IMG/VR virus record: IMGVR_UViG_3300047561_001243
Coordinates: 36,246 to 100,245 of that record
Reading direction: 5' to 3' (one strand)
Source: a virus
Lineage: Duplodnaviria; Caudoviricetes
Length of the DNA stretch: 64,000 nucleotides
The position numbers and the translations under genes were made by a program. The notes below the pieces were generated by a model. That model saw only the letters and a program-made list of their open reading frames with translations, was not told the DNA's origin and made no database searches. Below are positions 9,105-51,288 of the stretch, piece after piece (position 1 is the first letter of the stretch; each line of letters opens with the position of its first letter).

Positions 9105-9391
9105 ACCGTTGGGAAAATCATGCTAAGTGTCGAGGGTTAGATACAGAACTTTGGTTTCCACCCAGAGATAAAGCAAAATATAAAGACATTGCCGATAAAG
9201 CAAAGGCTATCTGTCTAGGTAAGGATGGTAAACCTGAATGTCCAGTGCGCAAAGAGTGTTTGCTCTACGCGCTTAAAATGGACGAACAACACGGTATCTG
9301 GGGTGGGTTAAGCCACAGAGAGCGCAACGCTTTACAACGTAAGGCAACTCGTAATAAGATGTCTGTTAAGGAATGGATATCAAACAACTAA
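9083..9391 (+). CDS. whiB: WhiB-family Fe-S transcription factor
   Basis: AKC...WFP...AKAIC...CPVRKECL...GIWGGLS. Confidence 0.95.
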   Translation: MYKGDELDRWENHAKCRGLDTELWFPPRDKAKYKDIADKAKAICLGKDGKPECPVRKECLLYALKMDEQHGIWGGLSHRERNALQRKATRNKMSVKEWISNN

Positions 9392-35718: not shown

Positions 35719-36439
35719 ATGAGAGACAGAGCTTTGGGCAAGTCAAAAGCAGAGCGCAGCGGAATGTTTCCAATTAACCGCAACAATGAATTTAGAGTTA
35801 ACAATCCTGGTATGTTTTCTGGGCCCCGCCCATCCTATGGAAGATATCAAGTAGGCTCTAACGCGTCAGATATACTTAATAAAAGCCTGAACAAAGGAAC
35901 ACGATAATGCCACTAAAGCGTCGTAGAGAAAATGATGAGACTCGCAAACTTGGTTCTATGGGTGAAGCGTTAGGTTTTGACAAACCCCTTAAAGAGTCAC
36001 GCTCTGTACTTCCTTATCGCCCATTCCCAGAAGATGCGGGCAATCCAGACCGCAATGTTAAGTTTAATGAAAAAGCAACTAAGCGTGCTGCGATGATTAA
36101 AGACGGTAGCTCAGCCGCTCTTATTGGTAAGCGTGTTGATACACATAACACAATTGCTAAGCGCCTTGGCAAAGATGTAGAGACCATTCAGGTGAATAGC
36201 GGTAAGAAGTAATGTGTAAAACTTGTGGCTGCGGAAAACCTAATAAAACCCATAAGAAGGTTATTAAGGTAGCTGGAGAAAAACATACTATTAAACAGAA
36301 GAAAAACGGCGAAGTCATTGTTGACCACGCTGGAAACAAGGGCAAGTACGACAAGATTAACCTTACAAAAAAAGCTGGGGCTAAGACAATTAAGCAAGGC
36401 GTAAAAGCTACAAAAGATTGGCATAAGAAAAATGGCTAA
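35719..36439 (+). CDS. Small basic hypothetical genes (35719-35907, 35907-36212, 36212-36439)
   Basis: TAATG-coupled K/R-rich ORFs. Confidence 0.55.
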
Positions 36440-37641: not shown

Positions 37642-40305
37642 TTGGGAGAGTTCTTGAACGATTTGCGTCATATCGCAACACAATTCGAGGCATATAAAAA
37701 AGTAGCACAAGCAACTGTAGGCGGGGGAGTACTCTTCTTCGTTCTTTCTTTCGGCCTATCGGAAAATGCTATTGCTGATGAGGCTCCTGTTGTTCCTCCT
37801 GCAGTGCAGCCAGAGAACGCTCCTGCGCCAGACGCGAGTCCTTCTTCAAATCAAGATAATGCAAGTCCTGCTCCAACTGTTGTCTCCGTTCTTGAAAAAG
37901 TTGATACCGCTACTGTAACAGTCCAAACCGCGGTTCATAATGCCGAAGTAGCTGTTGCCACAATCCTTCCAACCCAAACTATTGCCCAAGCGGTAGCTGC
38001 CGTACCAGAGGTGGTTCAAGCCGTGGCTGCTGCTACCACCAAGGTAGAGACAGCTGTTACTGCTATACAGGTAGCTGTTGCCGCTACAGATACAGCAACA
38101 GTCCTAGTTGCAGCCTCAGATTCAGCAACCGCCCTTGTAGCCCCTGCGGTAGTTGTTGTAGACAGCGCAACAGCAGTTGTTGCATCCGCAACAGTGGTCG
38201 TGGAAGATAAGACTGCAGTAGTCGCCGTAGTAACGCAAGACGTTACTACTGCTCAAGCAACCGCAGAGTCAGCGGTAGTAACAACCACCACTAGCGGAGT
38301 TACAGCAAAAGTTTATACTTATAATGGTGGGGGCTCACCAGCGCTTCCAAGTGAGACCGCAACACCTGTTCTTACAACTACAGTTCCCTACATATCAGCT
38401 AACTGGGGTGGGGGCACTGTCATGGGTGTTCAAAGCGACAGAGTTATTATTAAATACACTGGCACCATTACTGTTCCAGAAGAAGCAGTTGCAGTTAAAT
38501 ACGCTGTGTATTCAGATGATGGCGCAAAACTATATTTAGATGGTCAATTAGCAATTAATAACTGGAGAGACCAAGGTTCTACTTGGAGTGCGTATTCACC
38601 TACATATAACACCACAACCGATAAGTCACAAGATTTTGTGCTTTGGTACTACGAAAATGGCGGGGGAGCTAACGTAACTCTTGGATGGGGTATCACTAGA
38701 GCTAATGGAACTGGGTATTGGACTAATCCAATGGCTACTGCGTTTGGTACTACTACTACAACTCAAGACCCAGCAGCTCTTGCTGCTTTAGCTGCTGCTC
38801 AAGCAAACCTAACAACAGCAAATACAAACCTAACAAATGCTCAAACAGATTTAACAACGGCTCAAACAGATTTAACAACGGCTCAAACAAACCTAACAAC
38901 GGTTACTACCGCTGCTGGTGAAGCATTGAGCGCTGCCAACACCGCGCTTGCTACAGCAGACCAATTAGCTAATACTGCAATTGTAAAAGCCAATGAAGCT
39001 AAGGCTGCATTAGAAACAGCTACGACCACAGTCTCCATTGCTGCTTCTCAGTATGTTGCCGCTCAGCTTCAGTTGAAAGCTCAGCAAGATGCTGAAGCTG
39101 CTGCTCTGTTAGCGGCTCAACAGGCGGCTGCTGCTCAGGCTGCTGCTGACGCAGCTGCTGCTTTATTAGCGCAGCAGCAGCAAGCTGCTCAAGGTACTCC
39201 TGTACCACCGACTCCTGCTCCATCTATTCCTCCCGTGGCTCCAGAACCTCAACCAGAGCCTCCCGTTCAACCAACCCCAGTGGAACAACCACAACCAACT
39301 CCAACGCCCGAGCCAACGCCCGTTCAAGAGCCAGCACCCAATCCTGAACCAGACCCTGTCGCGACTGAACAACCCGCAGACCCTCAACCAGAACCAGCAA
39401 ATCCTGAGCCTGACCCAGAACCAACTCCTCCTCAGGACCCACCTAGCGAACCAAATCCACAACCAGAGCCATCCACAGGGGAGCCACCAGTAGCACCGCC
39501 AGACCAGCCGTCCGACGTTCCCGCTGACACAAATTCTGATGCTCAACATTCTGACGAACCGACACCGCCAGAACCGTCACCGCCAGAGCCAGAACAACCT
39601 GAAATACCATCTCAACCTCCTGTAGAGGAGCCTCCTGCTGAGGCGCCACCTGCAGAGGTTACCACTGCTGCAGAGATTAAAGCAGTTGTAGATGATGTGT
39701 TATCTGACGGCAAGTTGTCCGCAGCTGATGCAGTGGCAGTTCTTGAGTCACTCAACGCTGATGGTGAAATCACTAAGGATGAGGTTAATAATCTTTCAGA
39801 TTCCCTTGCAGCAGATGGCAAGCTAACTACCGCCGAAAAGGAGTTAGTTGCTGAAGCACTTATTCAATCTGTTACCCCTGGCGAAACACTGACAAAAGAA
39901 CAGATTCAAGATGCTGGTATTGCCTATCAAGACCTTCCACCAGAGACTCCTGTCGAGGTTAGGCAGGATGAGAACGGTAACGAAGTTATAATTACAGCAG
40001 ACGTAGCTGCGGCTCTAGTTTTACTAGAGAACCCATCAGAATTAATTGGCGCAATATTTAGCGACCCAGGACAGGCACTACAAGCACTTGGAAGTATCGG
40101 TGCTGATATGTCTACAGAAGAACGTGAAGAAGCACAGAAGATGGTAGTTGCTGCCGTTATTGCAGGCGGTGCCGCACTTAATGCTGTTGGCGCTGCTGGA
40201 GGAGCCGCGGGCGGAAGCCGTAGCGGTGGAAATAGCGGTGGGGGAAATTCTGGAGGCGGAGGCGCTTCTGGAGATAGTAAAGGCGTGAGGAGACGCAGAC
40301 CATGA
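37642..40305 (+). CDS. Large membrane-anchored surface protein with PA14 domain
   Basis: Signal-like N-terminus (AIA/DE), PA14 motifs (SDDGAKLYLDG, YYENGGGA), heptad repeats, Pro/Glu linker, C-terminal hydrophobic helix and RRRRP tail. Confidence 0.75.
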   Translation: MGEFLNDLRHIATQFEAYKKVAQATVGGGVLFFVLSFGLSENAIADEAPVVPPAVQPENAPAPDASPSSNQDNASPAPTVVSVLEKVDTATVTVQTAVHNAEVAVATILPTQTIAQAVAAVPEVVQAVAAATTKVETAVTAIQVAVAATDTATVLVAASDSATALVAPAVVVVDSATAVVASATVVVEDKTAVVAVVTQDVTTAQATAESAVVTTTTSGVTAKVYTYNGGGSPALPSETATPVLTTTVPYISANWGGGTVMGVQSDRVIIKYTGTITVPEEAVAVKYAVYSDDGAKLYLDGQLAINNWRDQGSTWSAYSPTYNTTTDKSQDFVLWYYENGGGANVTLGWGITRANGTGYWTNPMATAFGTTTTTQDPAALAALAAAQANLTTANTNLTNAQTDLTTAQTDLTTAQTNLTTVTTAAGEALSAANTALATADQLANTAIVKANEAKAALETATTTVSIAASQYVAAQLQLKAQQDAEAAALLAAQQAAAAQAAADAAAALLAQQQQAAQGTPVPPTPAPSIPPVAPEPQPEPPVQPTPVEQPQPTPTPEPTPVQEPAPNPEPDPVATEQPADPQPEPANPEPDPEPTPPQDPPSEPNPQPEPSTGEPPVAPPDQPSDVPADTNSDAQHSDEPTPPEPSPPEPEQPEIPSQPPVEEPPAEAPPAEVTTAAEIKAVVDDVLSDGKLSAADAVAVLESLNADGEITKDEVNNLSDSLAADGKLTTAEKELVAEALIQSVTPGETLTKEQIQDAGIAYQDLPPETPVEVRQDENGNEVIITADVAAALVLLENPSELIGAIFSDPGQALQALGSIGADMSTEEREEAQKMVVAAVIAGGAALNAVGAAGGAAGGSRSGGNSGGGNSGGGGASGDSKGVRRRRP
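38805..38901 (+). repeat. 21-nt tandem repeats encoding (T/N)AQT(D/N)LT heptads
   Basis: GCTCAAACAGATTTAACAACG occurs twice exactly, with degenerate flanking copies. Confidence 0.8.
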
Positions 40306-40812: not shown

Positions 40813-41556
40813 GTGGCAGAAAAAGGAACAGCAGCTGCTCTTATTGAAGTTGCACAAAAAGAAGTAGGGACTATTGAAGGCCCTAAAGATAATGAAACAA
40901 AGTACGGCGCTTTTACTAAAGCTAATTTCTTAGCATGGTGTGGAAGTTACGTTATGTGGTGTGCAAACCAATCTGGCGTAAAGGTACCTAATACAGTGTC
41001 AACCGTTGCTGGTGCTGCTGCATTTAAGAAAATGGGTACATGGTTTGAAGCTGATTGCGGGCAATCACCACAGCCAGGGGATATCCTGTATTTTGATTTT
41101 CCAGGAGATGGCGTTGATAGAATTTCTCACGTAGGTATCTGCAAAGGTATTGACTCAGACGGCGTTGTAACCACCCTAGAAGGAAACACATCCTCTAGTA
41201 AAAAAGGAAGCCAAAGAAATGGCGGAGAAGTTTGCGAGCAAACTCGTGCCTACAAAGCTAATAAGAAGAAAGTAATGGTTTCTATTGTTGGTTGGGGTCG
41301 CCCTAATTACAAAGGTAACGAAGTAACAGTTACTATCCCTAAAGCCAAGGCTCCAGCATTTCCAGGACAAATTCGTCCAGGAGACAATAATGAAGGCGTC
41401 AAGGTTGTTCAACGCGCCCTTGGTCTTCTAGCTGATGGGGACTACGGCCCAGCTACAAAGAAAGCTGTTATCGGGTTTCAAGACAACCATGACGTAGTAG
41501 ATTCAAATGGGATTATTGGTCCTAAGACTTGGGCTGAACTAGTTAAGTTTCTATAG
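40813..41556 (+). CDS. Endolysin: CHAP domain + peptidoglycan-binding domain
   Basis: AWCGSYV, SHVGI, TLEGNT (CHAP triad); VQRALG..ADG.YGP.T..AV..FQ...GIIGPKTW. Confidence 0.9.
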   Translation: MAEKGTAAALIEVAQKEVGTIEGPKDNETKYGAFTKANFLAWCGSYVMWCANQSGVKVPNTVSTVAGAAAFKKMGTWFEADCGQSPQPGDILYFDFPGDGVDRISHVGICKGIDSDGVVTTLEGNTSSSKKGSQRNGGEVCEQTRAYKANKKKVMVSIVGWGRPNYKGNEVTVTIPKAKAPAFPGQIRPGDNNEGVKVVQRALGLLADGDYGPATKKAVIGFQDNHDVVDSNGIIGPKTWAELVKFL

Positions 41557-43033: not shown

Positions 43034-44353
43034 ATGACAGGCCATATTAAAGTCAGTGGGGTTTGGCAGAACATAACAGCCCCATCGGTAAAAATTGCTG
43101 GTACTTGGAAGCAGGTTATACAGGCCTGGACAAAAGTTGGCGGCTCTTGGGTACAGTGGTATATCGCAACAATTACAGATACATTTACCCGTGCTGATAC
43201 TGGTTCAGGTTTAGGAACTAGTGATAGCGGTGCTTTATGGTCAGCAATTCGAGGCATATTTTTTATTAGTTCTAATAAAGCTAAAAGCAATGATTCCGCA
43301 GCTACCTACCCAATCGCTGTAGTTGATTCTGGAGTAACAACCCCCTCTATTAACTTAGATACAGATACTGCTGGTGGTGGAACTGGTATTTCTTTTTGGG
43401 TTTCTGATACACAGAACTGGTACGGGGTGTTTCCATTTGTTGCCACCTCTACCTCTTACGGACAAAGTTGTGCAACATACACTCAAAGTGCTGCATCATA
43501 TTCTTGCACCCAAGTTTCTGGACCCAACTACGGAGCAGCTTGCCAGGGATATGCATCAACTTATGGACAACAGTGTCAGGGCTTTACAACTACCTACGGA
43601 CAGACTTGTGATGGTTTTACCACCACTTATGGACAACAGTGTCAAGGCTTTAGTACCACCTACGGACAGACTTGTATTCAATGGTCAAACATTTCGTATG
43701 GAAACACAATTATTTGTAGTGGTGGTTGGCAACAAAGATACGATGGATTACGTGGTTACTATTACCAAGTTTGTCTTGCCTACGCAAACCAGCAAACTTC
43801 AAGCGGAGGAGGTTGTATCGACTGGTCTCAAACTTCTGGCACCTCGTGTACAGGCGGTTACTCTCAAACTTCTTCCAACTCGTGTACAGGCGGTTACTCT
43901 CAAACTTCTGCCAACTCGTGTACAGGCGGCTACGCTCAAACTGGTCCCAACTACACCTGTCCTGGAGGTTATATTCAAAGCGGACCTTCATATTCTTGCG
44001 GTATCGTAAATGGGCCAAACTACTCAGCTCTTTGCTCAGCCTACACTCAAACCTCTGCCAACTCAGCAGGTCAGGTATCTCTGCGTTTAATTAGGTCAGT
44101 TGCTAACGTAGTAAGTACTCTGGTAGACCAGGCTATTAGCGCATTGCCAGCATCTTTACAGGTCCTTATTAGTGGAAACCAAATTACTGCTCGAGCTTAT
44201 TCAGGAGTCGGGCAAACAACTCAAATTGGCTCAGATTTAGTTAATACCCCATCTTCACCTATTACAGCTACACAGCACGGCCTTATAATTGCCCCAGGCG
44301 GTTATAACCAAGGAACTACCGCTGACAACCTAACTGTTAGTGCCGTACAATAA
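43034..44353 (+). CDS. Putative fibre/receptor-binding protein with 16-Cys repeat insertion
   Basis: N-terminal KVxGxW repeats, DTFTRAD beta-rich domain interrupted by 33-nt (43562-43675) and 36-nt (43844-43941) Cys-coding repeats. Confidence 0.65.
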   Translation: MTGHIKVSGVWQNITAPSVKIAGTWKQVIQAWTKVGGSWVQWYIATITDTFTRADTGSGLGTSDSGALWSAIRGIFFISSNKAKSNDSAATYPIAVVDSGVTTPSINLDTDTAGGGTGISFWVSDTQNWYGVFPFVATSTSYGQSCATYTQSAASYSCTQVSGPNYGAACQGYASTYGQQCQGFTTTYGQTCDGFTTTYGQQCQGFSTTYGQTCIQWSNISYGNTIICSGGWQQRYDGLRGYYYQVCLAYANQQTSSGGGCIDWSQTSGTSCTGGYSQTSSNSCTGGYSQTSANSCTGGYAQTGPNYTCPGGYIQSGPSYSCGIVNGPNYSALCSAYTQTSANSAGQVSLRLIRSVANVVSTLVDQAISALPASLQVLISGNQITARAYSGVGQTTQIGSDLVNTPSSPITATQHGLIIAPGGYNQGTTADNLTVSAVQ

Positions 44354-44373: not shown

Positions 44374-44655
44374 ATGAGTACTACGCCACCACGTTCTTTT
44401 GCCGAGATTCAAGCAGAGCGTATTGCAGAGCGCCAGCAGGCACCATCATTGGCTGCCCAGCAGTCGGCGCATCCGTTTCACATCGCCCTTATTCTTGACA
44501 ACGAAGTTCAACAGGTATTTCATATTGAAGAAGAGATGGCTTCAATTTTTATGAGCTCCCCACTAATTCTTCAGGTAGAGGCACCTCTTGCGGGTGGCCC
44601 TGAAAGAGGTTGGGCATACAATCCACAGACTGGTCAGTTTACAGCCCCTGAATAA
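44374..44655 (+). CDS. Small protein typical of fibre-associated genes
   Basis: C-terminal GWAYNPQTGQFTAP motif. Confidence 0.5.
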   Translation: MSTTPPRSFAEIQAERIAERQQAPSLAAQQSAHPFHIALILDNEVQQVFHIEEEMASIFMSSPLILQVEAPLAGGPERGWAYNPQTGQFTAPE

Positions 44656-45215
44656 TGTCTCTTAAAGACTTTGTAACCGATACCCGTGCGGAGTTCTTAG
44701 ACGACAATATCCTTTTAATTAAGGATTTTTTACCCCAGAATATAGTCAAATCTATTTTAGATTTGGCTACTTCTGCTTCCCCTGAAGATTGGGATAAGTA
44801 TCCAATAGGTCTTCTTTGGAAGGGTAGACTTTTAGAATTCTCTTTACACGAAAACTTAATCTCAAATGAAATTTCCGCAATCCTTAATCACCGCTATAAG
44901 TTTATTGAAACTAACATTGTAAGAAAGTTAATTCCAGGAGATGAACGCCCACCTCACTACGACAGCGAAAAAGACCCCAGCTGCGAGTATGGGGTTGTTA
45001 TGTACCTTAATGAGGATTTTGATGGTGGGGAAATCTTTTATCCGTCAAAGGGGATTACGCACAAGCCCGTAAAAAACAGTGTTCTCATACATTCATCTGG
45101 ACCAGAGTACGTGCATGGCATATCTCCAGTTTTATCAGGAGTGCGCTACTATATGACCCTATTTGCAGATGCGAAAGCAGGGTCCAATGAAGTTCTACCA
45201 CTTTATCCCAAGTAA
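44655..45215 (+). CDS. 2OG-Fe(II) oxygenase (prolyl-4-hydroxylase-like)
   Basis: PHYD, MYLNEDFDGGE, HGISPV.SGVRY. Confidence 0.9.
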   Translation: MSLKDFVTDTRAEFLDDNILLIKDFLPQNIVKSILDLATSASPEDWDKYPIGLLWKGRLLEFSLHENLISNEISAILNHRYKFIETNIVRKLIPGDERPPHYDSEKDPSCEYGVVMYLNEDFDGGEIFYPSKGITHKPVKNSVLIHSSGPEYVHGISPVLSGVRYYMTLFADAKAGSNEVLPLYPK

Positions 45216-45909
45216 CGAAGCCTGGGCGGATAACGTACCAAACCCTAAACTAGCTCGTGATGTTATGCCTGATTGGTATAAGAAGTCTGAATTGTCGTAT
45301 GAAGATTCAGACTCACCAACTGGTGAGAGCAGTGGTTTAAAAACATGCAATCCGTTCCTTGATACCCTAATTGCTGGGTATGTGCTAACAACGTGGACAA
45401 ATATTTATGTAAAAGTAGGGCCAGATGGTTCTTTAGATGTTGATTGGGATGCCGATGCATCTAGCCCAATTATTATGGAAAGAAGTCCAAAATCAGGCGC
45501 TTTGATGCCGCGACCTGCTGGACACATGCCTAATCACCTTGTCTGGACTCCTAAGTGGGGATTTAAATCTCCTAAGGGGTTTAGTACTTTAGTTACGCAC
45601 CCACTTAATCGGTGGGACTTACCGTTCACCACATCAGCTGGAATTATTGACAGCGATAAGTTTCATGGTTCTGGGAATATCCCTTTCTTTATTAAAGAGG
45701 GTTTTGAGGGAGTTATTCCTACAGGAACGCCGATAGCACAACTTATCCCTATCAAACGTGAAAGTTGGACTGGTGCGGTTTATAACCCAGCACTTGTTGA
45801 TATCATTCCTTCTGTTGGTAAGCAGATGCGGGAAGTGGTACGCGGTTATTACCGAGATAAATTCTGGGTAAAAAAAGAATATAAGATGGAGAAAAATGAT
45901 AAAGCCTGA
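45187..45909 (+). CDS. Conserved phage protein (DUF6065-like), paralog of 22343-23044
   Basis: KTCNPFLD...GY, PKGFS.LVTHP, GIIDSD, PFFIKEGFEG.IP.GTP.AQ.IP.KRE.W. Confidence 0.65.
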   Translation: MKFYHFIPSNEAWADNVPNPKLARDVMPDWYKKSELSYEDSDSPTGESSGLKTCNPFLDTLIAGYVLTTWTNIYVKVGPDGSLDVDWDADASSPIIMERSPKSGALMPRPAGHMPNHLVWTPKWGFKSPKGFSTLVTHPLNRWDLPFTTSAGIIDSDKFHGSGNIPFFIKEGFEGVIPTGTPIAQLIPIKRESWTGAVYNPALVDIIPSVGKQMREVVRGYYRDKFWVKKEYKMEKNDKA

Positions 45910-46696
45910 GGATAAAATAGCAGTAGGTTGGATTGATGGTGGTCAGGTAATGAGCGGGTTTGCTGCTTATATTTCTAACCTACTTTTAAGTCGCCCCGTA
46001 ATCTCTGACGTTGTAGTAGCAAGTGGCCCCTACCTTTCTTACAATAGAAATAGAATGGTTGAACTTTTTCTTCAGACCGACGCAACTTGGTTGTTCTCTT
46101 TAGACTCGGATTTAAAGATAACCCCAGAAGATTTTGACTACCTATGTGAAACTGCAGATGCTGAAAAACGCGCAATTGTTGGAGGCAAGTATTACCTGCC
46201 ATTTGATAACGGGCAATCCATCCACCCATCTGCAATGGAAAAAGTACCTGGTACAAAACTGGGAGCATGGATTGACCCCTCAAAAGTTTTTGACGGTAAA
46301 ATTCTAGATAACTTGCATTCTGTTGGTTTTGGTTATTCTTTGACGCATCGGGATGTATTTGAAACACTCAAAACAGTTAACTTACAAAAAGACCCAAATA
46401 ACGAACTTAGTTGGTTTCAAGACTCATGGACCTCCGAATACAAGAACTGGATGTCAGATGACGTTTATTTCTTTATTCAAGTAGTTGAGCAAGGTATTAA
46501 CGTAGCTCTAGATACTAGGGCCACATCACAGCATTTAAAAGTTATGCACATAGGAGATTCCAGCATGCTTACCGTACGTAATGATTTCCGCAGCGGGCCA
46601 CGCAATGGTCACAATCACGGCCACGACCACAATGTTGTTGAGGTTATGCCTTCTCAACGTGTTTCGTGGTGGGCTCGCAGAAAGAAAAATGTATGA
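45896..46696 (+). CDS. GT-A fold glycosyltransferase
   Basis: NRN..VE.FL, WLFSLDSD (DxD), GFG..L.HR.VF, SDDVYF. Confidence 0.75.
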   Translation: MIKPEDKIAVGWIDGGQVMSGFAAYISNLLLSRPVISDVVVASGPYLSYNRNRMVELFLQTDATWLFSLDSDLKITPEDFDYLCETADAEKRAIVGGKYYLPFDNGQSIHPSAMEKVPGTKLGAWIDPSKVFDGKILDNLHSVGFGYSLTHRDVFETLKTVNLQKDPNNELSWFQDSWTSEYKNWMSDDVYFFIQVVEQGINVALDTRATSQHLKVMHIGDSSMLTVRNDFRSGPRNGHNHGHDHNVVEVMPSQRVSWWARRKKNV

Positions 46697-47718
46697 GGGT
46701 CTTATTGACTGGTGCTGGTGGTTTTGTTGGTCACCACACCTTAGAGCACTTACTTAAGACCACTGATTGGGATATTGTTGTAACCGATAGCTTTAGACAT
46801 AAAGGCTACAGTTCACGTTTGAGAGCGGTGCTTGCAGCCAACCCGCAGGACAAAGACCGAGTAACTGTCATAACTCATGACTTAACAACTCCTATAGATG
46901 TTGTGACGGCTAATCATATTGGAGAAGTTGGCATTATTATCAATAATGCTTCTGAGTCTCATGTTGATAGAAGCTTACTTGAGCCACGTTATTTTATTGA
47001 AAACAACGTTGCTATTGCCGCAACCATGCTTGATTACGCCAGAACCCTTCCAGGGTTAAAACTATTCATTCAAGTCTCTACTGATGAGGTTTACGGACCA
47101 GCAAAAAATGGCGCCTCCCACCCAGAGTATGACCCCATCTTGCCATCAAACCCGTACTCGGCAAGTAAAGCTGCTCAAGAAGCAATTGCTATTGGGTATT
47201 GGAGAAGTTATGACGTTCCAGTAGTAATTTCTAACACTATGAATATTATTGGCGAACGCCAAGATGTTGAGAAATTTATTCCAAAGACTATCAGTTACAT
47301 CTTGGCAGGTAAGAAGATGCCTGTACACGCAAGCTTTGATGGTGAATGGCACGCAGGAAGTCGTTATTACCTGCATGCTCGCAACCAAGCAGACGCGCTT
47401 GCGCACATATCTAAAAACTCTTACAAACACAAGTTAAAGTTTTCTGAGGGCGTTCAACGACCACACAGGTTCCACGTTGGCGGAGAACGCGAAACTTGGA
47501 ACGATGAGATGGTCAACATGATTGCTGGGCATATGGGCCTTACAGGCGACTGGGTTGATTACCACGATGTTGGGAGCTCTCGCCCAGGCCATGACTTACG
47601 CTATGCATTAGACCGAAAAACTCTTGAGGAATGGGGTTGGACACCTCCAGTGCCGTTTGAAGAGTCTCTGCGCAAAGTTGTTGAGTGGACATTAGCAAAC
47701 CGTGAGTGGCTCCTTTAA
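46693..47718 (+). CDS. rmlB: dTDP-glucose 4,6-dehydratase
   Basis: TGAGGFVG, ASESHVDRS, VSTDEVYG, PYSASK, RPGHDLRYALD. Confidence 0.9.
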   Translation: MRVLLTGAGGFVGHHTLEHLLKTTDWDIVVTDSFRHKGYSSRLRAVLAANPQDKDRVTVITHDLTTPIDVVTANHIGEVGIIINNASESHVDRSLLEPRYFIENNVAIAATMLDYARTLPGLKLFIQVSTDEVYGPAKNGASHPEYDPILPSNPYSASKAAQEAIAIGYWRSYDVPVVISNTMNIIGERQDVEKFIPKTISYILAGKKMPVHASFDGEWHAGSRYYLHARNQADALAHISKNSYKHKLKFSEGVQRPHRFHVGGERETWNDEMVNMIAGHMGLTGDWVDYHDVGSSRPGHDLRYALDRKTLEEWGWTPPVPFEESLRKVVEWTLANREWLL

Positions 47719-48391
47719 CTCTTTCTATCATCTTCACACCCCTAAAACTGGGGGTCACTGGGTTGATAGCTTAATACTCAGGACAATAAAACCTGCGTTA
47801 GAAGATGCGGGTATTCCATTTAAAACCGACCATGCGGGTTGGAGCCATGTACAGAACAATACATACATACTTTCAACATGGAGAGACCCAGCTTTACGTA
47901 CCGTTAGCCATTTCTGCCATTATAAAAATTATTTTTGTGGAGATTCCAGCAAATCTAGTGAGGCCGAGCTTTTGAACTGGGTTGAAAAAAATGAAGGGGC
48001 CCTATCAAACTACCAAAGCCGAACTCTTCTATATTCAACACAAGAAACACGGGTGCCTTATTTTTACTTAAACCATAAAGACTTTTTAAACACCCCTATC
48101 GACAGAGATGAGGTTTTAAAAAGACTGTCTCGCATAAATGTAATTATTAAAGATATAGAGATGGACGACCAAACTGCTGAATCTGTATTGAAGAAGATTG
48201 TTGAAGACCTAAAGCTTAAACATGTTCCGCACCCAATTAAGGGTACGGATTTTAATATAAACCCCAACTCTCAGGAACTTTTCAACATTTTATCTAGTTC
48301 TACGATAGACTACTTATTTGCCATCAACCCATTAGATACGGAGATATACCTAAGTGATAATTCAAGTTATTGGTTTGCCAGGGAGCGGTAA
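47702..48391 (+). CDS. Sulfotransferase-family protein
   Basis: HLHTPKTGG (5'-PSB) and RDPALRTVS (3'-PB) PAPS-binding motifs. Confidence 0.8.
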   Translation: MSGSFNSFYHLHTPKTGGHWVDSLILRTIKPALEDAGIPFKTDHAGWSHVQNNTYILSTWRDPALRTVSHFCHYKNYFCGDSSKSSEAELLNWVEKNEGALSNYQSRTLLYSTQETRVPYFYLNHKDFLNTPIDRDEVLKRLSRINVIIKDIEMDDQTAESVLKKIVEDLKLKHVPHPIKGTDFNINPNSQELFNILSSSTIDYLFAINPLDTEIYLSDNSSYWFARER

Positions 48392-49103
48392 AACTACTTT
48401 AGCAACTGAACTGGTTGGGCGTATCAATGCCGTACACCTCAACGCTGATTATGTCCGCTCTACCATTAACTCTGACCTTGGATTTACGCCAGAAGATAGA
48501 GTTGAACACGCACGCCGCATGGGTGAGATGGCTCGCCTGCTCTCTGGACAAGGTCTTGACGTAGTCGTTGATTTTATATGCCCAACCCAAACAACTAGAG
48601 ATGCTTTTGGTAAAGCAGACGTGATTGTGTGGATGGACACCATCCAAGAAGGTCGCTTTGAAGATACCAATAAGCTTTGGGAAATTCCTACTGGGGTAGA
48701 TTATCACTTTGTAACTTATGGGGCTCAAGAACAAGTTGACCACATTATTGACGGCTCAAAGCTTTACGATTGGAAGAAGCCAACAACTCTTCTATTGGGA
48801 AGATACCAACCTTGGCATGAAGGCCACGAAGCATTAAAGGAAAAAGCTCATGAACGAACAGAACAAGTCCTCATTGCCGTCAGAGACACCTATGGAACCT
48901 CCGACAAAGACCCGCTTGTTTTTGAGGAAGTTAAGCAACATATTGTTCAAGGAACAGCCCGACCTGCTCTTGTAATGAAAGTTCCCAACATCACTAACAT
49001 TGTGTACGGCCGTGATGTGGGATATAAAATTGAACAAGTAGACCTTGGGGCTACCATCCACTCAATCTCGGCAACCCAAAAGAGAAAAGAAATGGGCATA
49101 TGA
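48354..49103 (+). CDS. cysC: Adenylylsulfate kinase fused to an HxGH nucleotidyltransferase domain
   Basis: GLPGSGKTT, DLGFTPEDRVEHARR, VDFICP; then GRYQPWHEGH and SISATQKR. Confidence 0.8.
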   Translation: MIIQVIGLPGSGKTTLATELVGRINAVHLNADYVRSTINSDLGFTPEDRVEHARRMGEMARLLSGQGLDVVVDFICPTQTTRDAFGKADVIVWMDTIQEGRFEDTNKLWEIPTGVDYHFVTYGAQEQVDHIIDGSKLYDWKKPTTLLLGRYQPWHEGHEALKEKAHERTEQVLIAVRDTYGTSDKDPLVFEEVKQHIVQGTARPALVMKVPNITNIVYGRDVGYKIEQVDLGATIHSISATQKRKEMGI

Positions 49104-50997: not shown

Positions 50998-51288
50998 TTA
51001 AGCTATCTTTAATCGTCTCTTTAACTTCTTTCGCTCTACATCCGTTGTAGCCCCCCAGATGCCCAATACGGGCTCGTGAAGGGCATACTCTAGGCACGGA
51101 GTTTGAAACTGACAGCTCCTACATATAGCAAGGGCTGCTTTAGTTATCGAACGTGGTGTTCCTATCTCTGGAAAAAATATATCGGGGTCTGTTTGTGAAC
51201 ACGGTTGAGTGCCATCAAATCCAGGCGCATTAGTACCACCCCTTGCGTTGCCAAAACTTCCATGCGTTACATGCGCCCGACGGCTCAT
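50998..51288 (-). CDS. whiB: Second WhiB-family transcription factor (start uncertain)
   Basis: PCSQTDPDIFFP...AICRSCQFQTPCL...GIWGATT. Confidence 0.9.
   Translation of the reverse strand: MSRRAHVTHGSFGNARGGTNAPGFDGTQPCSQTDPDIFFPEIGTPRSITKAALAICRSCQFQTPCLEYALHEPVLGIWGATTDVERKKLKRRLKIA

Follow-up and report, generated by a model that had tools for sequence, protein, structure and literature searches.

A probable lectin-like tail adhesin with a disulfide-laddered stalk of tunable length, encoded by an uncultured phage

The window analysed here is a stretch of 64,000 nucleotides (positions 36,246 to 100,245) of the IMG/VR virus record IMGVR_UViG_3300047561_001243 (Duplodnaviria; Caudoviricetes), which is 100,245 bp long and complete according to CheckV. 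The subject of this work is one gene of the window, called the ladder gene below (43034..44353, + strand). It occurs once in the phage genome and encodes a protein of 439 amino acids (aa), the ladder protein. All 16 Cys residues of this protein are located between residues 146 and 334, eight on each side of a tip: 146, 158, 170, 181, 192, 203, 214 and 228 before it, and 247, 261, 272, 284, 296, 309, 322 and 334 after it. An earlier note on this DNA, made from the sequence alone, had placed the 16 Cys in one insertion (43449–44050), eight plus eight around a Cys-free segment. This description is exact; the note quoted 17 of the 18 residues of the segment, which separates C228 from C247 and reads SGGWQQRYDGLRGYYYQV.

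The insertion consists of an outbound arm (C146 to C228; 43469..43717, + strand; 8 Cys with spacings of 12,12,11,11,11,11,14), the Cys-free tip (aa 229–246; 43718..43771, + strand) with the turn motif RYDGLRGYYY, and a return arm (C247 to C334; 43772..44035, + strand; 8 Cys with spacings of 14,11,12,12,13,13,12); the central spacing is 19. The sequence contexts of the Cys residues mirror each other in nested order (CATY/CSAY, YSCTQV/YSCGIV, four CxG[FY] units versus four C[TP]GGY units, CIQW/CIDW and ICSG/VCLA), and every pair of contexts listed earlier is present. The mirror deviation of the spacing list equals 5; shuffling the list 5000 times gave 13.7 on average (p = 0.009). The Cys pattern and its mirror symmetry are real and non-random. 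Ser, Thr and Tyr are very abundant in the insert.

Both arms contain tandem repeats, and the predicted 33-nt outbound and 36-nt return periods were recovered by Tandem Repeats Finder. The 33-nt array (43565..43668, + strand; 3.2 copies, 72% matches) encodes units of the type CQGFTTTYGQx, whose mutual identity is 55–88% with an ABAB pattern. The 36-nt array (43826..43942, + strand; 3.2 copies, 92% matches) encodes units of the type CTGGYSQTSxNS, two of which share 97% identity. Open reading frames (ORFs) overlapping the ladder gene (43374–44009 and 43726–44094 on the + strand, 43710–44018 on the − strand) were taken as by-products of the repeats and not as genes. In a relative with 87% identity (P0002), the repeat units within each arm (43565–43942 in the window) are more alike than in the ladder protein. 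This suggests ongoing within-arm homogenisation (concerted evolution), with the count of rungs, as the matched Cys positions of the two arms are called below, staying at 8+8.

The insertion interrupts a domain whose first half (aa 49–140; 43178..43453, + strand) and second half (aa 341–439; 44054..44350, + strand) were modelled with predicted local distance difference test (pLDDT) scores of 82–97 and 94–97, respectively; the second half is 94–96% identical in P0002 and in another relative, P0003. In the AlphaFold2 model of the ladder protein, built with 48 homologues, residues 49–150 and 330–439 have pLDDT mostly above 90. According to VIA-align, this core resembles the carbohydrate-binding module (CBM) CBM66 (4b1m; Z 16.8, rmsd 2.6, 155 aa aligned), the receptor-binding domain of mycobacteriophage TM4 gp23 (9n6a; Z 16.2), the BppU-CBM baseplate chain of mycobacteriophage Douge (8zdo_a; Z 15.4) and CBM2 of the phage J-1 Dit (Z 13.2). 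The outcome was unchanged when the model of the relative P0018 was used, and 155–174 residues were aligned to concanavalin A (ConA)-like chains. The core thus has a ConA-like lectin fold, i.e., a two-sheet jelly-roll beta-sandwich. No solved chain was aligned by VIA-align past the core of about 170 residues in either model, and a Foldseek search of PDB with the whole ladder-protein model gave weak jelly-roll matches only. Among the predicted viral structures of BFVD, the top six matches were uncharacterised proteins of uncultured phages belonging to the same family as the ladder protein, followed by proteins of the minor tail and tail fibre types from phages of Rhodococcus, Gordonia, Arthrobacter, Mycobacterium and Streptomyces.

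The core is preceded by an N-terminal module (aa 1–48; 43034..43177, + strand) of short GxWxxV-type beta-strand repeats (phrog_25859, E 5e-9; AlphaFold2 pLDDT about 63). In Vibrio phage JSF10, the same module opens a 201-aa protein whose gene lies just downstream of that for the tail fibre, and the module of the ladder protein is a probable virion-attachment module. Among the cultured phages of INPHARED, matches to the ladder protein were limited to these 48 residues (JSF10, RSF1), P0018 matched none, and no ladder was found in any of them. PHROGs matched the ladder protein by phrog_25859 only, over residues 1–48; there was no Pfam match at E <= 1 and no NCBIfam match. The insert used as a query returned nothing from the ESM Atlas and nothing from a PDB sequence search at E <= 10.

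The structure of the insert was approached through two models. In that of the ladder protein, core strands (E129–151 and E332–356) run out to the first rung, and a tip hairpin (E232–237/E242–247) is seen with pLDDT of about 62; the arms (residues 158–226 and 252–326) have pLDDT below 50. P0018 is a relative with 4+4 Cys, for which 149 homologues were available. In its AlphaFold2 model (mean pLDDT 89.7; tip 91–92, mid-arm 60–78) the insert is a single long two-stranded beta-hairpin composed of E95–113, E116–139, E145–156, a turn at 157–160 (GFRG), E161–172, E178–201 and E204–223. Together with the comparative data described below, these models make a two-stranded antiparallel beta-hairpin a very probable structure of the insert. 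Scaled to 91 residues per arm, the stalk of the ladder protein would reach about 25–30 nm if fully extended. A two-copy complex prediction for P0018 gave an interaction prediction score from aligned errors (ipSAE) of 0.00, which speaks neither for nor against self-association.

A word-indexed search yielded 53 homologue clusters, and an exhaustive search yielded at least 615 clusters (50% identity) at E <= 0.001, 219 of them at E <= 1e-10. All homologues originate from uncultured phages, and the family has no Pfam entry; a scan of JGI metagenomes for close relatives gave no confirmed match. Close relatives contain 6, 8, 12, 14, 16, 18 or 22 Cys, always equally divided between the arms (3+3, 4+4, 6+6, 7+7, 8+8, 9+9 or 11+11), with mirror-imaged spacing and a central gap of 16–19. 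Matched counts on both arms, expected if the arms are antiparallel partners, are thus found in close relatives. The spacing of P0015 (7,12,7,9,9,11,9,9 / 18 / mirror) is a perfect palindrome, as is that of P0021 (11+11). The mirror deviation of both is 0, a value reached in 0 of 5000 shuffles, versus a tandem deviation of 18–22, which excludes two tandem copies of one domain. In P0003 (69% identical to the ladder protein), a 14-residue segment is shifted by one rung on both arms, a compensated change. Rung number in mirror-type ladders varies from 2 (spacings 40,19,40) to about 18, and rung spacings in relatives vary from 5 to 13.

Other Cys arrangements are observed in the family as well. In L028, L043, L055, L016 and others, the insert starts and finishes with a CxCxxC motif, the two running in one direction along the sequence (spacings 2,3 ... 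2,3); the six Cys at the stalk base of these relatives could form a metal site rather than disulfides. An 820-aa relative (region L049:703-3165) carries 52 Cys in about eleven tandem modules with a spacing of 7,7,6,13, which is not mirror-symmetric. The same insertion site can therefore carry a different Cys-rich repeat architecture.

The insert could alternatively be a compact disulfide-rich module (e.g., a meander of two layers or a knotted domain, its disulfides being local or mixed), in which the mirror spacing would reflect two similar half-domains lying face to face. The pLDDT of 30–40 in the arms of the ladder protein, the lack of precedent for a monomeric two-stranded ribbon of about 30 nm, the GP and GG motifs recurring every 11–13 residues and the non-mirror tandem Cys modules of other members, such as the 52-Cys protein, are compatible with such a fold. 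The P0018 model, however, has continuous 24-residue strands and a single turn at high confidence, the spacing in P0015 and P0021 is mirrored and not translated, and a hairpin suits those relatives in which 40-residue arms lie between a single Cys pair at the base and another at the tip. A compact module is accordingly considered improbable.

The parity of Cys numbers bears on whether the Cys residues of the hairpin are bonded. The family includes 233 distinct proteins that have 5 or more Cys; the number is even in 212 of them and odd in 21. This count covers related clusters and does not represent a formal probability. In 12 of the 21 odd-numbered proteins the extra Cys is situated at least 40 residues outside the insert. 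Losses of single Cys thus appear clearly rare in the family, and even parity also holds in members with a non-mirrored pattern. Conservation points in the same direction: an aromatic residue at +3 from the Cys is found in 45–53% of rungs in mirror-type ladders and in 26% family-wide, and the Cys themselves are conserved far better, all 16 being kept in P0003 with its arms only 47–49% identical. We infer disulfide staples from parity and conservation; they are not displayed by the AlphaFold2 model. Structural disulfides are described for the tails of the freshwater cyanophage Pam3 (PMC9942802) and of Agrobacterium phage Milano (PMC10811340). The ladder protein presumably acts outside the cell, where phage tails use disulfides. 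Given a hairpin, nested disulfides are regarded as likely.

Several observations weigh against a disulfide-laddered adhesin stalk. The mid-arms of the ladder protein itself are unmodelled (pLDDT 30–40). In P0018, partner Cys (113/201, 125/189, 136/178 and 148/166) sum to 314, and the four paired strand segments, with the register read from the secondary-structure string and not from coordinates, are all symmetric about i+j = 317–318. As a result of this difference, each Cys stands opposite the aromatic (+3) position of the CxxW/Y/F motif to which its partner belongs (register pairs C148:W169, F151:C166, C136:Y181, W139:C178, W128:C189, C113:Y204 and W116:C201), so that partner Cys are three residues apart on opposite faces and the AlphaFold2 register offers no disulfide geometry. 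The model of the ladder protein is offset in a similar way, with 479 versus 475 at the tip and 483–485 versus 480 at the base. Rung spacings that are equal on both arms are often odd (156 odd versus 108 even), which is incompatible with a regular ribbon having every disulfide at a non-hydrogen-bonded site. Cys-free relatives (P0048, P0046, P0038 and others) contain 7-residue GSNYG-type repeats, about as many on one side of a divergent centre as on the other; since their inserts are of like size, Cys is not needed for the two-arm architecture. Finally, the ladder gene lies in this genome beside an endolysin gene and a sugar-modification island, outside any recognised tail module.

These data could be explained by a long hairpin in which the rung Cys are unbonded, each packing on the aromatic residue of its partner's CxxW/Y/F motif, with the thiols free, metal-binding or bonded to other virion or host components. 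Strand boundaries centred 1.5–2 residues off the Cys mirror centre in both models, seven of eight Cys:aromatic pairs in P0018, the frequency of the +3 aromatic in mirror-type rungs, the common odd spacings and the existence of Cys-free ladders are all in line with it. Against it stand the much better conservation of Cys than of the +3 aromatic, an even parity (212:21) that extends to non-mirror members and is unexplained by a two-fold packing motif, and the fact that sixteen exposed free thiols would be very unusual on an extracellular virion protein; moreover, the register in question was inferred without coordinates. Register tests on 562 rungs of 70 mirror-type proteins (mutual information along anti-diagonals versus within-protein re-pairing, aromatic co-occupancy and Pro-offset parity) scored offsets 0 and +3 equally. 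Unbonded Cys are rated as unlikely, ahead of the other alternatives. Of the earlier expectation of a disulfide-stapled hairpin, the long hairpin is supported, being modelled in the 4+4 homologue; the predicted bonds from C1–C16 to C8–C9 are not seen in the models, where Cys face aromatic residues according to the secondary-structure string.

Thirteen homologues have no Cys at all, with inserts of 88–284 residues, and their sequences indicate that arms can pair without Cys. The two-arm architecture thus predates Cys or is independent of it, which fits Cys as added staples.

The tip and the arms evolve differently. The tip motif RYDG[FL]RGY[YW]Y is kept in the representatives of 12 clusters, even where identity is as low as about 40%, and the hypervariable tip anticipated by the earlier note is not found; the arms diverge fastest instead. 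Compared with P0002, identity is 100% in the tip, 77–82% in the arms and 94–96% in the C-terminal core. Compared with P0003, it is 56% in the tip, 47–49% in the arms, 100% in the N-terminal module and 94% in the C-terminal core (flanks 83–100%). As judged from these alignments, the arms are the fastest-evolving part, and the tip is conserved in the subfamily of the ladder protein. Such an abrupt drop of identity between conserved flanks suggests that the stalk was exchanged as a cassette or has changed at a strongly accelerated rate. For the conserved turn, the best reading is a nucleus from which the hairpin folds; it is possibly a conserved contact as well. Since the sides of the stalk and not its tip evolve fastest, the sides are the likely host-specific contact or spacing element.

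In fold and role, the models place the ladder protein closest to the CBM-type receptor-binding domains of actinophages. It shares the beta-sandwich (Z 15.4–16.8) with Douge gp23 BppU-CBM (8ZDO), the C-terminal domain of TM4 gp23 (9N6A) and CBM66 (4B1M). Douge BppU consists of an N-terminal ring domain and a CBM binding mycobacterial arabinomannan and alpha-glucan (PMC13033339), and the ladder protein likewise combines a small N-terminal attachment domain with a CBM-like core; an actinobacterial host and, in related loci, a tail-gene neighbourhood are further common traits of actinophage CBM proteins. In contrast, there is no detectable sequence similarity to Douge BppU-CBM, TM4 gp23 or CBM66, and none of these carries a long Cys-laddered hairpin. 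A receptor-binding role, proposed earlier, fits both the tail-gene context and the lectin fold, which receptor-binding domains of actinophages have as well. The ladder protein would be attached to the virion and would bind a glycan or the host.

Theta-defensins, protegrins and tachyplesins are peptides of 16–18 residues in which Cys are two apart and directly opposite each other at non-hydrogen-bonded sites. The topology proposed here shares with these cystine-ladder peptides a two-stranded antiparallel hairpin and nested Cys pairs. Unlike theirs, the rungs of the ladder protein are 11–14 residues apart (5–13 in relatives), its arms are about 90 residues long each, and direct apposition of Cys in the family is not reproduced by AlphaFold2. 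The C-x-C arrangement of theta-defensin and protegrin ladders (two residues apart, on one face) is absent from the ladder protein. Antifreeze beta-helices of the Tenebrio type are built of the 12-residue repeat TCTxSxxCxxAx, with two Cys per coil six apart and all repeats in one direction. This type of repeat was rejected as a model, as the ladder protein has one Cys per 11–13-residue unit and an order that is mirrored and not translated.

Bovine ultralong antibodies have disulfides in the hypervariable knob of the third heavy-chain complementarity-determining region (CDR-H3) and none in its stalk (PMC8602281, PMC5994613). The likeness to CDR-H3 suggested for the insert is loose: a long beta-ribbon of varying length leaves a beta-sandwich domain in both cases, but the ladder protein has its Cys in the stalk, no knob and a conserved tip. 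The tails of Pam3 (PMC9942802) and Milano (PMC10811340) are similar in that proteins made in the cytoplasm carry functional virion disulfides; unlike the proposed ladder, theirs are inter-subunit bonds fixing fibres or sheath, with no repeated intrachain ladder. Tentaclins (C-type-lectin hairpins targeted by diversity-generating retroelements, PMC10743442) were rejected as relatives, having a different fold and no Cys ladder. No paper on a mirror-symmetric Cys-laddered hairpin design was found in the literature.

The remaining comparison is with the long tail fibre of T4. The three chains of its gp37 intertwine and are held together by HxH-Fe sites. The gp37 needle, as reportedly described by Bartual et al. 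in 2010, has an out-and-back topology with mirrored motif order, so that both proteins would have an out-and-back chain with mirrored motifs on a thin receptor-binding projection. In the monomer models, the ladder protein differs from gp37 in being a single-chain hairpin on a jelly-roll, with Cys instead of His. The insert could nevertheless form a trimeric needle like the gp37 tip, with the arms of three chains intertwined and Cys serving as interchain bonds or as metal sites replacing His-Fe. The topology of gp37 itself, the trimeric state of many receptor-binding proteins and the CxCxxC motifs at both insert ends of some relatives are consistent with this. However, in the models the chain departs from a single monomeric jelly-roll along one arm and comes back into it along the other, on adjacent strands, and there is no HxH motif in the ladder protein, which has only two His, both outside the insert. 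In addition, Douge BppU, which comes nearest in architecture, forms a dimer whose CBMs are independent of each other (PMC13033339). Such a needle is the least probable of the structures considered.

The genome encodes a DNA polymerase, a helicase, a UvsX-like recombinase, a ribonucleotide reductase, a terminase, a portal, a major head protein and a collagen-like fibre. Two WhiB-family genes (9110–9334, + strand, E 7e-21; 51022–51204, − strand, E 4e-15) score above the Pfam cut-off, and WhiB matches in control genomes were restricted to Corynebacterium. The two WhiB genes identify an actinobacterium as the host and, given 44.6% GC, this is probably a low-GC freshwater actinobacterium. Upstream of the ladder gene by 2.7 kb lies a gene for an 887-aa PA14-domain protein (37642–40305, + strand; no PHROG match), probably a further adhesin or fibre. 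An endolysin gene (CHAP and PG_binding_1; 40813–41556, + strand) is located among these adhesin-like genes and not in a lysis cassette. The ladder gene is followed immediately by a sugar-modification run (44655–49103, + strand) encoding a 2-oxoglutarate (2OG)-Fe(II) oxygenase, a family 2 glycosyltransferase (GT2), a nucleoside diphosphate-sugar 4,6-dehydratase/epimerase and an adenosine 5'-phosphosulfate (APS)-kinase-like protein. Modification of the ladder protein by this run is only a possibility.

All ORFs of 80 related IMG/VR loci were clustered for comparison of contexts. In these loci the ladder gene as a rule comes after genes for virion structure and tail fibres (phrog_5838, phrog_8780); several myophage loci have the tail sheath and tube genes downstream of it. 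Oxygenase, glycosyltransferase and dehydratase clusters recur in only 10–15 loci. Two downstream partner genes are far more constant beside the ladder gene than the sugar genes. The first (44374–44655, + strand) encodes a Cys-free protein of 93 aa, and its cluster is found in 67 of 81 related loci, usually directly after the ladder gene (75–145 aa, about 90 as a rule). The second (45163–45909, + strand) encodes a DUF6065-like protein of 248 aa (phrog_7084), with a cluster in 61 related loci (about 235 aa). The two often form pairs repeated two or three times (e.g., L016:9443-11500). The DUF6065-like partner has invariant C, D, GY, R and Y residues and cupin-like GHxxNH and THPLN motifs; its profile matched no PDB sequence, and NCBIfam returned nothing for the neighbours of the ladder gene. 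These two partners could be maturation or assembly helpers.

The same neighbourhood bears on whether the ladder protein is a virion adhesin at all. It could be a cell-wall binder, soluble or associated with lysis, that is encoded beside the endolysin; or it could serve the hydroxylase/glycosyltransferase/sulfation island nearby as a substrate or scaffold. Its gene lies some 10 kb ahead of the terminase gene, with the CHAP endolysin gene on one side and the genes for the 2OG-oxygenase, GT2, sugar dehydratase and APS kinase on the other, and its insert is very rich in Ser, Thr and Tyr. Yet the gene stands directly after tail-fibre or other virion structural genes in most of 74 related loci, several times ahead of sheath and tube, the N-terminal module is also encoded beside the JSF10 tail fibre gene, and the sugar clusters are confined to the few loci mentioned above. 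A role outside the virion is very improbable, being rated only marginally above the trimeric needle.

The evidence taken together favours, by a modest degree, a disulfide-laddered, length-tunable stalk on a lectin-like tail adhesin, and this probable assignment leaves the interpretation of the earlier note partly supported. The ladder protein would be a lectin-like adhesin associated with the tail of this uncultured low-GC actinophage, composed of three parts: a 48-residue attachment module, a ConA-like sandwich of the kind with which baseplate and minor-tail proteins of actinophages bind glycans of the cell wall, and a hairpin of about 190 residues prolonging two neighbouring strands of the sandwich. 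Its arms would be formed by 11–13-residue repeats with one Cys each, outbound rung k being matched with return rung k. Most likely, the hairpin would zip from the YDG[FL]RGY turn in the reducing cytoplasm. After lysis, the eight Cys pairs would oxidise to nested disulfides, C146–C334 through C228–C247, locking a thin stalk of up to about 25–30 nm if fully extended. Stalk length would be set by rung number and altered by gain or loss of repeats in both arms, and the stalk sides, rich in Tyr, Ser, Thr, Gln and Gly, may provide the host-specific contact or spacing element.

A more far-reaching version is put forward tentatively. The insert could serve as a genetically length-tunable molecular ruler, i.e., a monomeric two-stranded beta-ribbon of 25–30 nm with evenly spaced disulfide rungs formed only after the virion leaves the reducing cytoplasm. 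Its rung number (2 to about 18) would evolve by coordinated repeat gain or loss in the two arms, so that the lectin head or the stalk reaches as far as the envelopes of different freshwater actinobacteria require, with the fast-evolving Tyr/Ser/Thr-rich sides as the specificity surface. If this is true, the ribbon would be the longest monomeric two-stranded beta-ribbon known.

A stable lectin domain bearing a rod of programmable length would be a scaffold of interest to protein engineers. If the ladder is real, it would represent a new structural solution for phage host recognition: a thin rod of two strands only, adjustable in length stepwise by one repeat per arm and locked by redox chemistry outside the cell. 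Since the family is large and restricted to uncultured aquatic phages, mostly of actinobacteria with unknown phage receptors, it may constitute a major unannotated class of host-range determinants in the freshwater virome.

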